From: Escherichia phage vB_EcoP_YF01
DNA length: 64,000 nt
Sequence record: OQ025076.1
Direction: 5' to 3' (one strand)
The notes under the pieces were generated by a model. It saw nothing but the letters and a program-made list of their open reading frames with translations. It was not told the origin of the DNA and ran no database searches. This document shows, piece by piece, positions 40,796 to 51,406 of the stretch (position 1 is the first letter of the stretch; each line of letters begins with the position of its first letter). The position numbers were made by a program, and so were the translations under genes.

Positions 40796-42640
40796 TTAGT
40801 GTGTATGCATCCAGTTAAGTCCAATCTGACAATCAGATGCCAGAGGACATTCCATATTCAGATACTCGCCAGCTTTCTTAACACAAAGCTCGGTGTGCTC
40901 TTTGAGTTTCTGTACATCATTACGGTTTACTGAGAATTGACCTTCATCGTGCATATCAATTACCTTAGCACAACGAACCTTATCTTTCTCAATCCACTTG
41001 TTAAGGAACATCATAGCATATTTCATAACAACAGCACCAGCACATTGCAGGAGTGTGTTAAGGGCTTTATGAACCATAACCTTACCAGTGGCATCCCGTC
41101 TCATTGTAATCTTACGACCATCAACTCCAATCAAGTATCCTTGAGCAGCTTTCTCTGTCATACGATCAATGAGGATTGCAATACATGGGTTCTCTGCTAA
41201 GAAACGTGCTCTCATCACTGAACCTTCGTCAGCCCCACCACCTACAATTGAACCAAGCTTAGCATCGCCAGCACCGTAGTTGAATGCATAGATAAACGTT
41301 TTAGCGTTGTCACGAGTAGGAAGACCAGCAAGTTTCTGGTTGTGGGAGTGGATATCACCTTCAAGGAGAATATCACGATACATAATAGCAGAAGCTAAAC
41401 CACGTTCTGCCAGAGCTTTCTTAGCTGGGTTGTTCTCTTCAATTGCCTCAGCAAGCATATCCCTACACTCTTTAATGAGGTAGTGAGCGAGCATACGAAG
41501 TTCAAGTCCAGAACCATCATACCCTAAGAATACTTCTTTACCAGCAGGTATGTAATATTTGTAAGCGCCTACAGGTTTGTCTTTCTTCCCAGGCTTACCT
41601 TTCTCGTAAATTACGTTAGTACCTTTTCGTATATAACAACCATCAGGAACAACGTTAGTAATAACGAAAGGACGAGAGTGATCACTGTCTGAGTTATAGT
41701 CAGACTCAAACAAACTGCGACACTCGTGACCAAACAGACCACGGGAGGGAATATTAACCACGATACGATGTTTGAATCGAAAAGTCGGCGTAGCGCAGCT
41801 GTTAGCTTCTGCCGAAAGTTTACCATCTTCGCGTTCCTTTGCTATGAGTCCACTGATAAGACCTAGCCTGTGAGCCGCTACAACGCGTCTCTTAAGCAAA
41901 CTTCCGACACTCCCTAGCTCACCCCCTAACCCTTCTTCAAGAGTCTCCTCGAGGTTTGTAGGAGCTGTAGGCCACTTGTTTGATGTGGCTAGTGCTTTCT
42001 TAATCTCATCAAACGTTACAGGATTACGGCGATTAGGGTTCAACCCCAAACCAAATACGTAAGCCTTCATGTAATTCTTAGTCTTAAACCTGAAATGCTT
42101 TTCTAAGAACTTCTTAATATCAGCGTCAACCATCTCGGCTGTCTGCTTCTGCTTAGCATTGCCTCGCATCCAAGCAGTATACCATGCTTGGTATGTTCCA
42201 TACTTTCTCATATCTTTCTTAATTTCGAAAGTATTCCAAGGCTTCTTAGATACGTTAAACTCTGGAGGAAGAAAGCCCTCATCCATAAGAGCTTCTTTAA
42301 CTCGTGCATCTTTCGATGGGTCAAAGTCTACGTATTCGACACAGGTGAAAGCTCCACCAATATCTTCTCTCTTCAGCCCAACCCTATCACAATAGGCTTG
42401 AGGCCACTTCTGTAAAGCTCCAGACTTTTTAAATGGCTTCATGTAAGTAGAGCCATCTAATCTCATCTTAGGTAAGAGAGGAATCAACTCTCTGTCAATA
42501 TTAACAATAATCTCTTTAAGGAGGTGAACATACCACCGAGCATTTCTTCGGTTGAAACTCACTCCGTGCTTTGCTTGCTTAGAGATTATATCAGCGACAG
42601 TCATCTCTGTCAAAAATGGAAGAGCGTCCGGGTTGCTCAC
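40796..42640 (-). CDS. Family A DNA polymerase, polymerase domain only
   Basis: Motif A LGYDGSGLELRML, motif B RDNAKTFIYAFNYGAG, motif C MHDEGQF; no N-terminal exonuclease domain in this ORF. Confidence 0.85.
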   Translation of the reverse strand: MSNPDALPFLTEMTVADIISKQAKHGVSFNRRNARWYVHLLKEIIVNIDRELIPLLPKMRLDGSTYMKPFKKSGALQKWPQAYCDRVGLKREDIGGAFTCVEYVDFDPSKDARVKEALMDEGFLPPEFNVSKKPWNTFEIKKDMRKYGTYQAWYTAWMRGNAKQKQTAEMVDADIKKFLEKHFRFKTKNYMKAYVFGLGLNPNRRNPVTFDEIKKALATSNKWPTAPTNLEETLEEGLGGELGSVGSLLKRRVVAAHRLGLISGLIAKEREDGKLSAEANSCATPTFRFKHRIVVNIPSRGLFGHECRSLFESDYNSDSDHSRPFVITNVVPDGCYIRKGTNVIYEKGKPGKKDKPVGAYKYYIPAGKEVFLGYDGSGLELRMLAHYLIKECRDMLAEAIEENNPAKKALAERGLASAIMYRDILLEGDIHSHNQKLAGLPTRDNAKTFIYAFNYGAGDAKLGSIVGGGADEGSVMRARFLAENPCIAILIDRMTEKAAQGYLIGVDGRKITMRRDATGKVMVHKALNTLLQCAGAVVMKYAMMFLNKWIEKDKVRCAKVIDMHDEGQFSVNRNDVQKLKEHTELCVKKAGEYLNMECPLASDCQIGLNWMHTH

Positions 42641-42656
42641 TTTATACTCCTTTAAA

Positions 42657-43079
42657 TTATTGGTAAAGTAAATCTGTAAATGCTTGGTTATCTTCTACTA
42701 CATTCAACATGGTAGCTTCATCACTATAAGCCCTAACCGTCCCGTTGACAACTGTCCAAGGAGGAGGTGGAGGTGGTGTATGGTTAGCCCTAGCTTCACG
42801 AGGTTGCTCTCGTACTAAATGAGCCACAACCCTTTGGTTAGCGACTTCTTCTCTTTCTCTAATAGCTCTCTGGATGTAGGCCAGCTTCATGCCCCAAGCT
42901 TCTTCAAACTCTTGAGGGTGCTTATCACTGATAACCACATACTGACGTTCAGGAATACCAGAGCGAATCTCTGATAATAATTCATGGAACAAATCTAGTT
43001 CGTGCTCAGTGAGATTCATTTCAATATCATCCCACTTTAGAACTAGGAAACGGTTTTGGTGTCTAGCTGGTAATGGCAT
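42657..43079 (-). CDS. Hypothetical protein with poly-proline stretch
   Basis: 140 aa ORF upstream of the polymerase gene. Confidence 0.4.
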   Translation of the reverse strand: MPLPARHQNRFLVLKWDDIEMNLTEHELDLFHELLSEIRSGIPERQYVVISDKHPQEFEEAWGMKLAYIQRAIREREEVANQRVVAHLVREQPREARANHTPPPPPPWTVVNGTVRAYSDEATMLNVVEDNQAFTDLLYQ

Positions 43080-43082
43080 AAC

Positions 43083-43367
43083 TCAACCTCTTGGGAATGG
43101 CATCAAAAATTCCACAGCAGATTTAATTTCATTATTGATTCTTGAATCACGATAAGAGATAAACTTACCTTTGCTATCACGTAACATCACATTAGTTCTG
43201 GCTGTTTTGTGAGGTAGTAATGTGACACTAGTTGGAATAGCATCAATCCCTACAGCGTATTTGTCAATAGTCTTACTTTCAGCCAACAGATAAGACCAAG
43301 TACGCGGTTTCTGCTCCGGGCGGTTAGGGTAGGTGTCCCGAATCTGAACCATAGCTAACTTATTCAT
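43083..43367 (-). CDS. Small protein, tandem paralogue 2 of 2
   Basis: Shares TARTNV(M/L)LR...GKFISY...AVE.L.PFP(R/K)G with the adjacent gene. Confidence 0.45.
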   Translation of the reverse strand: MNKLAMVQIRDTYPNRPEQKPRTWSYLLAESKTIDKYAVGIDAIPTSVTLLPHKTARTNVMLRDSKGKFISYRDSRINNEIKSAVEFLMPFPRG

Positions 43368-49524: not shown

Positions 49525-49533
49525 TCTTATTCC

Positions 49534-50847
49534 TTAGTTATTTGTTTCTACGTCAAAAGAGATTCCACGACCCGCTTCATCAGCAAACCGAACTGTACGG
49601 GTTTGAGGTTCTAATACTTCAGGGTTGTTGGTAACAAATCGATCAGCGAGACTATCTACCACATCTTGGGCCACACCTTCATCAGTCCACACAGCCCTAA
49701 CAGGTGCGTTGATATCACCAACAGCAAAACCCTGACCAGAGAACTGACGTGCGCTAACAGTTAAGCCATTTGGTCGACCACGAGAGGGTCTAGCCATCCA
49801 TCGCTCCATAGAATCACTTGTAATACCGAGAGCTTCTTCAAAAGATGTTCTACGAGTAGGGCTTACTCTTCGTGACTCCTGTGCTCTACGCATTGCAGGG
49901 GCTACAAACACCCCTTCAATTGCATTGTGTCGGTTAGGTTCCTCTTCTCGACCAAGCAGATCACCACCCGTGTTAGTCGTTAAATTTGTCAACCCTTCAG
50001 ACCAATACGCATGAATCTGGCTAGAGCCATGTGTGCTTGACATTAACTGAATCTCTTCATAAGGGATTCCAAAGAATCGACTCATGTCACGGTCAACACA
50101 ATACTGAGCACTTGTTGTATCCTCAATAAGAGCAACCTGACCTCGTTCGTTGACCAGATGGTTAACTGGTTGAGGTGTAGGAAGGTATCGAGTTTGGGCC
50201 ATGTATTGATGTGCAACTGCTGGAGAGGAAAACCTCAATACCTGAGAGTTAGGCCATTTCTTGTGAACATACCTGATTTCACGACTAGAAACAACCACTG
50301 GACAAGGGGCGGTCATAGCCAAATATCCGTGAGAGGTCATGAATAATTTGTCAAGAGTCATCGCACCACGACACATCATAGGAAAATTATCCAATACCTC
50401 TTCAATAGAAGTAGGATAGTTAAACATGAATTGGATACGAACCCCATTCCACTGAAACTCAATAATATCAGTGAATGTTAGTTGAGAAGTCCCAGTATAC
50501 GGCTCATCTGTAGATTCAGCAAGAAGGGATGCATATTCAATATCTTGTGACTCTAGCCATTCCTTCACATTACTTTCAATCTCTCTTCCAAGAGCTTGCC
50601 AACGATCAGTTGGGACGAAAGTATTTTGAGTTCTTGGTGTTTGTCCTCTGACAATAAAGATATCAATGTCATGTGGAGCTGTGTTATTAAGCACAGCATC
50701 ACGAACAGCCCCACCAGTAATGATGGGACAGATACCGTCTGGAACTAAATTGTTGTTAATCAACTGTTCAATGAAGTGACGACCAACAGTGATATCAGGT
50801 TGTTGAGCAACCTTATCTTCAATTTGGTTAATCGGGATAACAATCAT
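49534..50847 (-). CDS. Pol-beta-superfamily nucleotidyltransferase (CCA-adding / poly(A) polymerase-like head)
   Basis: ITGGAVRD...HDIDIF matches the GGxVRD...DxD nucleotidyltransferase signature; start placed at internal ATG 50847. Confidence 0.45.
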   Translation of the reverse strand: MIVIPINQIEDKVAQQPDITVGRHFIEQLINNNLVPDGICPIITGGAVRDAVLNNTAPHDIDIFIVRGQTPRTQNTFVPTDRWQALGREIESNVKEWLESQDIEYASLLAESTDEPYTGTSQLTFTDIIEFQWNGVRIQFMFNYPTSIEEVLDNFPMMCRGAMTLDKLFMTSHGYLAMTAPCPVVVSSREIRYVHKKWPNSQVLRFSSPAVAHQYMAQTRYLPTPQPVNHLVNERGQVALIEDTTSAQYCVDRDMSRFFGIPYEEIQLMSSTHGSSQIHAYWSEGLTNLTTNTGGDLLGREEEPNRHNAIEGVFVAPAMRRAQESRRVSPTRRTSFEEALGITSDSMERWMARPSRGRPNGLTVSARQFSGQGFAVGDINAPVRAVWTDEGVAQDVVDSLADRFVTNNPEVLEPQTRTVRFADEAGRGISFDVETNN

Positions 50848-50848
50848 T

Positions 50849-51406
50849 TTACATTTTCCAATATAATGAAGGTGGGTCGTAAGGGTCAAATCCCGTGAGT
50901 TCACACAAGAAAAGATAAACCTTAACAGTTAAGTTAACGTCCTGTTCACAATAAGTAAACATATCCTCAGTGAAAGCATCCCATGCTTCCTCTTGCTCAC
51001 CGTAGTCACCTTTAAGTTCCTCTAAGAACTCACCCCATTGCTTCAAGCCGTGACCTCTTGGGCCACGCCTAGGGTCGCCTTTCGGATACTCAGGACTGTC
51101 ACCAATACGGTCAGGTTTAAGATATCGACTAAGACATAAAGTGTCAAAGACGTTAAAATTATATTTAATCAAAGAGGGATACATCTTTTTCAGAGCAGGT
51201 AAGTCAAAGTCAATAATATTATGACCCACTAGTACATCTGCTTCTGTAAGTTTACGAATCCCATCTTCAATTTGGTGAGGCCGATAGCCCCACCTTTCAC
51301 CAGTTTCAACATCGAAGATATAGATACACCATACTTTAGTTATGTCATCGTACAGTGCATTACTCTCGATATCGAATGCAAATACTTTCTTCTTTTTCTT
51401 TACCAC
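50849..51406 (-). CDS. Stand-alone DnaQ-like 3'-5' exonuclease (proofreading domain separated from the polymerase)
   Basis: Exo I FAFDIE, Exo II HNIIDFD, Exo III YCEQD. Confidence 0.7.

Follow-up and report, generated by a model that had tools for sequence, protein, structure and literature searches.

Separate genes for the polymerase and the proofreading exonuclease of a T7-type DNA polymerase in a phiEco32-like coliphage

Introduction

Why should a phage encode the polymerase and the proofreading exonuclease of a family A DNA polymerase (PolA) in two genes 8 kb apart, and do the two products still make up one enzyme? The question is raised by Escherichia phage vB_EcoP_YF01 (sequence record OQ025076.1), of which a stretch of 64,000 nucleotides, called the window below, was analyzed. 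A preliminary description of the window had pointed to an open reading frame (ORF) for a polymerase domain and to a separate small gene for an exonuclease, and had considered both that the two proteins assemble in trans and that the exonuclease serves another function. The two genes, here called pol and exo, are listed with the features around them in Table 1.

On sequence similarity the window is a Kuravirus-like (phiEco32-like) coliphage genome, since its polymerase shares 99.8% protein identity with the DNA polymerase of Escherichia phage LorandFenyves_Bas91 (PQ850614; Bas91 below), the DNA around and within the region is ~96-97% identical to that of Bas91 (blastn), and the 10.6-kb interval spanning both genes is present in 98 phage records, all from phiEco32-type (Kuravirus) phages of Escherichia or Shigella. 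(At least 80% of the interval is covered in 61 of the 98.) Identity to the DNA polymerase of phage SU7 is 87%. Bas91, YF01, SU10 and NJ01 are all phiEco32/Kuravirus-like, and Bas91 has the same gene order and the same split, with strain-level differences only, such as an extra HNH endonuclease ORF in the window. The minus strand carries every gene in this half of the window.

For this very phage group, the split has been published before and is present in annotations. All LUZ24-group phages encode the polymerase and a proofreading 3'-exonuclease as separate genes (Glukhov et al. 2012, PMC3517423, where a similar organization reported for phiEco32 is also cited), and the two genes are separate throughout the Kuravirus-like phages (PMC9965538). 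In the Bas91 record, exo bears the annotation "DNA polymerase exonuclease subunit".

A polymerase without an exonuclease domain

The 614-aa product of pol is a T7-like family A DNA polymerase without an exonuclease domain in its own polypeptide; a separate gene supplies that domain. Among Pfam families it matches DNA_pol_A (PF00476) alone (residues 361-611, E 2.5e-23, 83.1 bits against a gathering cut-off of 34.3), and the same search gave no match in the ORF to any exonuclease family, including PF01612. The best relatives among PDB sequences are chains of the T7 gene 5 polymerase (gp5), segments of the ORF being alignable with the T7 protein between about residues 295 and 704, and in a multiple alignment the first residue of the ORF falls at about T7 residue 201.

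Polymerase motifs A, B and C, named in the preliminary description, are complete and align with those of T7. Invariant in 56 homologues are D375 and E380 of motif A (DxxxxE), R443, K447, Y451 and Y455 of motif B (RxxxKxxxYxxxYG) and H564-D565-E566 of motif C (HDE), together with the C-terminal His. An AlphaFold2 (AF2) model built on the alignment of these homologues has a predicted local distance difference test score (pLDDT) of 91.8. When the model was compared with the PDB by Foldseek, the top 27 matches were T7 gp5 chains (E down to 7e-26, template modelling (TM) score ~0.55-0.59), with Bst and Klenow ranking below. The N-terminus of the model forms two long helices, at residues 6-25 and 31-55, as opposed to the alpha/beta sheet of DnaQ. 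Pfam, the T7 alignment and the AF2 fold thus reveal no hidden exonuclease domain in the ORF, the finding that would have refuted the preliminary description. The gene begins with a GTG codon, with GGAG upstream at 6-nt spacing. The ORF immediately upstream of pol (42657-43079) was tested as a degenerate remnant of an exonuclease and rejected, the hhalign probability being 0.5% and no Pfam family being matched.

The region of the thioredoxin-binding loop aligns with T7 residues 295-363 and is ~21 residues shorter. The polymerases of the split clade also carry three insertions that are absent from T7, from Vibrio phage VP3 and from the closest fused relatives, all of them confidently modelled: an ~80-aa helical block in the thumb region (residues ~130-211), a block rich in beta structure ahead of motif A (~310-365) and a further helical segment following motif A (~388-420).

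Within the 5' end of pol, at 42585-42613 on the minus strand, the sequence contains a sigma-70 consensus without mismatch: TTGACA and TATAAT at a spacing of 17 nt, together with the TG of an extended -10. It is located 27 nt downstream of the start codon and is oriented as the genes. Two matches with at most one mismatch occur in the window against 0.6 expected, which is not clearly significant. The consensus might serve as a promoter within the gene, or it might arise from conservation of the codons for F-L-T-E and A-D-I-I.

A predicted stand-alone proofreading exonuclease

Judging from its motifs and modelled fold, the product of exo is a complete DEDDy (DnaQ-like) exonuclease of the PolA proofreading type, for which exonuclease activity is predicted. 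It matches DNA_pol_A_exo1 (PF01612) in Pfam (E 2e-8, 34.7 bits against a gathering cut-off of 23.6) and aligns with residues 3-178 of T7 gp5 (E 1e-11). A search of a large protein collection returned 65 relatives, of which the complete ones are nearly all stand-alone proteins of ~163-250 aa. Conservation was read from an alignment of 43 stand-alone homologues (163-247 aa, down to 31% identity). In these, D12 and E14 of Exo I (DxE) are invariant, as are N63, D68 and also H62 at Exo II (Nx3[F/Y]D), where F67 fits the motif; in Exo III (Yx3D), D156 is invariant and Y152 is found in at least 90%. This pattern speaks for an active exonuclease that is under selection.

The AF2 model (pLDDT 94.2) has an RNase H-like alpha/beta fold with the topology beta-beta-beta-alpha-beta-alpha-beta. 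Its top 27 matches in the PDB are all T7 gp5 chains (E ~1e-9 to 1e-11, TMq up to 0.72), followed by other polymerase exonuclease domains at ~7e-6; the first stand-alone nuclease, TREX2, appears at ~1e-5, about 5 orders of magnitude weaker. The preliminary description, which had read the gene as a separate and complete DnaQ-like exonuclease with Exo I, II and III, is borne out by Pfam, by the T7 alignment, by the invariant motifs and by the model.

Two complementary halves

How are the two proteins related to each other? By alignment, they are complementary halves of one T7-type enzyme that abut at the inter-domain linker. The concatenated exo and pol sequences of the window, of Salmonella phage SE131 and of Pseudomonas phages BroderSalsa and Clew-10 were aligned jointly with the fused polymerases of T7 and VP3. 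The four junctions, one per split lineage, are spread over no more than five columns of the alignment (T7 residues 200-204), in the linker that joins the exonuclease domain to the thumb. The exonuclease keeps a segment of that linker, an FDPxxPP motif that corresponds to YFPPE in T7, and the polymerase begins directly after it. Both proteins match the PHROG profile of fused polymerases, phrog_17, exo at positions 667-826 and pol at 836-1233. (The exonuclease also matches phrog_403, and PHROGs has families named DNA polymerase exonuclease subunit.) In alignments with P0181 (618 aa), the nearest of the fused relatives found, residues 11-169 of exo correspond to residues 5-154 of P0181 and residue 12 of pol to its residue 168; ~16 residues at the C-terminus of exo and ~11 at the N-terminus of pol lie outside the cores homologous to fused relatives.

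T7 gene 5, with the exonuclease and polymerase fused (PDB 1T7P, 2AJQ, 6N7W), is the best match in both sequence and fold for each of the two halves. The catalytic residues are the same, including the Tyr at the position of T7 Y526 and the C-terminal His, and the replisome context in the window is T7-like as well, with a gp4-like primase/helicase ending in an acidic tail and, encoded separately, a gp6-like 5'-3' exonuclease. The differences are that T7 gp5 is a single polypeptide with a longer thioredoxin-binding loop, whereas the additional insertions belong to the polymerases of the split clade.

Did the exonuclease come from the same ancestral gene as the polymerase, or could it have been gained separately, by horizontal transfer, after pol had lost its own exonuclease domain, so that the pairing is convergent? 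Such an acquisition would fit the 8.2 kb that separate the genes and the abundance of mobile elements (HNH endonucleases) in this part of the genome. However, four lineages share one break point, and across nine split and fused proteins the pairwise similarity scores of exo and of pol are correlated (Pearson 0.90, Spearman 0.71), so that shared descent is favored over separate acquisition. The fused polymerases, moreover, resemble both halves at comparable levels: P0181 gives 36% with exo and 42% with pol by BLASTP, and by local alignment P0180, P0181 and P0184 give 43-53% with exo and 46-54% with pol. The ORF upstream of pol, as described above, holds no trace of a lost domain. A separate origin of the exonuclease is accordingly considered very unlikely.

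Distribution and gene order

The comparison with related phage genomes that had been proposed in the preliminary description finds the same split in Bas91, SE131, BroderSalsa and Clew-10. In all four, the order is primase/helicase, exo, a spacer, and a pol gene that encodes the polymerase domain only. The spacer varies in length. In the window the genes are 8,208 bp apart, and the earlier count of about twenty genes between them agrees with 20 coding sequences (CDS) annotated in the syntenic spacer of Bas91 plus one HNH ORF. SE131 (Grimontviridae) has 18 genes in ~6.8 kb, and the LUZ24-like phages BroderSalsa and Clew-10 have 6 small genes in ~1.6 kb. The LUZ24-like (Bruynoghevirus) and 7-11-like (Grimontviridae) phages thus share with the window the break in the linker, the exo gene following the primase/helicase gene, the spacer and the pol-only gene, but their spacers are shorter and the proteins are 37-54% identical to those of the window. 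The nearest pol homologues with near-complete coverage (~490-618 aa, down to ~34% identity) contain PF00476 only, and proteins in which PF01612 and PF00476 are fused are found only among the more distant homologues.

Motif B is the site of a second break in many Kuravirus-like polymerases, giving products of 449-457 aa that end in ...KTFIYAFN (P0079-P0082). In SU7 (MZ342906, 39153-41601) a homing endonuclease lies between two CDS that are both annotated "DNA polymerase". From the sequences, a break of the SU7 type is probably an intron or homing endonuclease insertion; the pol gene of the window, unlike those of these relatives, is uninterrupted.

Such interruptions lend some color to the idea that the split is an artefact, produced by an assembly or frameshift error, or that the halves are rejoined by trans-splicing, by a split intein or by programmed frameshifting. 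Between the halves, however, lie ~20 intact, annotated and conserved genes, in 98 independent genomes. Trans-splicing or rejoining by frameshift was rejected on the sequence, since each half has its own ribosome-binding site and start codon and the cores are complementary. A split intein, which would place N and C fragments of ~100 and 35 aa at the break, was rejected as well, the ~16 residues of exo and ~11 of pol beyond the cores being too few for intein halves. An artefact or a rejoined product is therefore extremely improbable.

The window is not the only place where a T7-like PolA has come apart. In the S-SBP1-like cyanophages, or cyanopodoviruses, the boundary between the domains is likewise where the enzyme is divided into two genes, exo and pol, and Czernecki et al. 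(2023) traced the split to a single frameshift (PMC10201439). The AF2 complex of the S-SBP1 products superposes on the fused polymerase, from which assembly in trans was inferred, and PolAs were reported to need the exonuclease domain for stability (PMC10201439). In contrast to the window, the S-SBP1 genes are adjacent and overlapping, with no genes between them, and belong to a different T7-like group; most likely, the two splits are independent events. Literature searches found no report of a biochemical test of any such split PolA. A familiar counterpart at the level of working mode is the E. coli Pol III core, in which the polymerase (alpha) and a DEDD proofreader (epsilon, DnaQ) are separate polypeptides that are encoded at distant loci and function as a complex. 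The analogy goes no further than that, since Pol III is a family C polymerase and its polymerase subunit is not homologous.

Could the freed exonuclease instead work independently of the polymerase, either teamed with the primase/helicase or as a 3'-5' DNase of general function, leaving the polymerase without dedicated proofreading? Its roles might then lie in recombination, in primer or end processing, or in the breakdown of host DNA. The position of the gene invites this reading: its GTG start codon overlaps the TAA stop of the primase/helicase gene by 7 nt (with GGAG 7 nt upstream of the GTG), an overlap that suggests translational coupling of the two genes, and the adjacency is kept in three phage groups. 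The terminator-like hairpins between exo and pol and the clade-specific insertions of the polymerase may be cited in its favor as well. The adjacency, however, is explained by ancestral gene order alone. Fused polymerases, too, follow the primase/helicase gene in T7, VP3 and L007, which makes the placing of exo beside the helicase an inherited order, and the gene for fused P0181 lies two genes downstream of a primase/helicase gene (one context examined). Furthermore, the closest relatives of exo in sequence and structure are PolA proofreading domains rather than stand-alone nucleases, the linker segment is retained with pol starting right after it, the two proteins have diverged congruently, and an exonuclease domain is reportedly required for PolA stability (PMC10201439). 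An independent function is for these reasons judged unlikely.

Proposed origin and assembly

Of the two possibilities raised at the outset, assembly in trans is supported over a separate function for the exonuclease, because the fold of exo is of the T7 type, the break lies in the linker, the exo and pol scores are congruent, and the same conclusion has been drawn in the literature both for this phage group and for the cyanophage split; the association of the two proteins would follow from these sequence and model data. The best explanation of the locus, with a probability of roughly 80%, is an ancient fission followed by gene insertion, the products making up a non-covalent exo-pol holoenzyme. 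The analysis shows the homology, the position of the break, the intact active sites, the folds and their conservation across lineages; the association, the proofreading in trans and the single fission are what we infer from alignments and models.

The ancestor would have been a T7-type gene, encoding the exonuclease domain and then the polymerase domain, that was located downstream of the primase/helicase gene. Fission would have taken place once, in the solvent-exposed linker between the domains, in the common ancestor of the LUZ24-like, 7-11-like and phiEco32-like podophages. The exo half presumably stayed beside the primase/helicase gene, to which it would be translationally coupled, while nucleotide-metabolism genes, small ORFs and homing endonucleases later built up between the halves, giving spacers of ~1.6 kb (LUZ24-like phages), ~6.8 kb (SE131) and 8.2 kb (the window). 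The two proteins would then re-associate non-covalently into a gp5-like holoenzyme, in which the 185-aa subunit would remove misincorporated 3' nucleotides by two-metal DEDDy chemistry and the 614-aa subunit would polymerize.

Some observations weigh against this account. The insertions of the split-clade polymerases, such as that at ~130-211, are absent from the fused relatives and could replace some of the contacts with the exonuclease. The exo gene is coupled to the primase/helicase gene and not to pol, from which two terminator-like hairpins separate it, so that the stoichiometry and timing of the two products could differ. Finally, both the binding of exo to pol and its proofreading for this polymerase are steps that we infer from sequence and predicted structure.

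The same features can be turned around. With exo in the translation unit of the primase/helicase, behind putative terminators, an independently set ratio of exo to pol might tune fidelity, or exo might dock on the helicase-primase; both ideas are speculative and, on balance, improbable. An exonuclease docked on the helicase-primase might serve the leading- and lagging-strand polymerases, or other 3'-end processing. The ~80-aa helical insertion in the thumb could, on this reading, be a new docking module.

The spacer and neighboring genes

What lies between and around the two genes is summarized in Table 1. Besides the HNH endonuclease, the spacer contains genes for a nucleotidyltransferase, a dCTP deaminase, a DNA-binding protein, a thioredoxin-domain protein, a ThyX-type thymidylate synthase and a PhoH-like protein, together with a small ligase-like ORF and small hypothetical ORFs. 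At the HNH ORF, the blastn alignment with the Bas91 record (L001) is interrupted, window positions 43715/44225 facing positions 12926/12921. By this comparison, a mobile element was inserted recently between the two halves, which makes the ORF a live example of spacer growth.

Table 1. Coordinates of pol, exo and associated features in the window
Feature	Position	Strand	Basis or remarks
gp6-like 5'-3' exonuclease, separate gene	32527-33369	minus	Judged from Bas91 annotation ("exonuclease") and PMC9965538
DNA polymerase (pol), polymerase domain only, 614 aa	40796-42640	minus	Thumb, palm and fingers of T7-type family A; motifs A, B, C; C-terminal His
Spacer between exo and pol, 8,208 bp, ~20-21 genes	42641-50848	minus	Bas91 synteny, ORF list, PHROG matches
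Terminator-like hairpins in intergenic gaps of the spacer	47408-47380; 43688-43665		Consensus match only
HNH endonuclease ORF, 164 aa	43703-44197	minus	phrog_59, E 3e-32; absent from Bas91
Phage thioredoxin-domain protein, 91 aa	46891-47166	minus	phrog_22 thioredoxin domain
Stand-alone 3'-5' proofreading exonuclease (exo), predicted DEDDy, 185 aa	50849-51406	minus	Homologous to N-terminal domain of T7 gp5
T7 gp4-like primase/helicase	51400-53190	minus	Pfam DnaB_C and weak Toprim_2 match

By comparison with T7, where gp5 pairs with host thioredoxin, the thioredoxin-domain protein is a candidate for the polymerase's processivity partner; a hypothesis of processivity through the phage's own thioredoxin has been raised for the related phage Privateer (PMC7881722). 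The nucleotidyltransferase gene (49534-50847, minus strand, 437 aa) borders directly on exo, its ATG at 50847 following the exo stop codon by two bases. (This ATG is the true start, and ORF 49534-50904 is over-extended, a minor correction.) The protein shows a weak match to the poly(A)-polymerase/CCA-adding head PF01743 (E 2.5e-4, just below the cut-off), and in LUZ24-like phages a related "NT ClassII-CCAase domain" protein is encoded elsewhere in the genome.

At its C-terminus, the primase/helicase has an acidic tail whose last residue is Trp (51400-51500, minus strand). In T7, the acidic, Phe-terminated tail of gp4 docks on gp5, and by analogy the acidic, aromatic-ended tail in the window suggests a T7-like contact between helicase and polymerase. 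Upstream of the primase/helicase gene, at ~53400-57300 on the minus strand, is a cluster conserved in Kuravirus, LUZ24-like and 7-11-like phages, whose members include an amidoligase / COOH-NH2 ligase, a glutamine amidotransferase, a RimK-like ATP-grasp protein and a gamma-glutamyl cyclotransferase; its counterparts in the compared records lie at 1-3354 (L001), 1481-7019 (L002) and 2250-13608 (L003). The gene for the 5'-3' exonuclease is found ~7.4 kb downstream of pol. As the 5'-3' exonuclease, the 3'-5' exonuclease and the polymerase each have a separate gene, the three Pol I-type activities are spread over three genes.

Implications

What, then, does the locus offer? As a discovery its value is small, for the split is in GenBank records and in at least two genome papers, and a third paper analyzes an analogous split structurally. 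As a coliphage system, however, it would be a convenient place to test whether a family A polymerase can be proofread by a separately encoded exonuclease subunit, and a possible yield would be a naturally exonuclease-free T7-type polymerase with an add-on proofreader.

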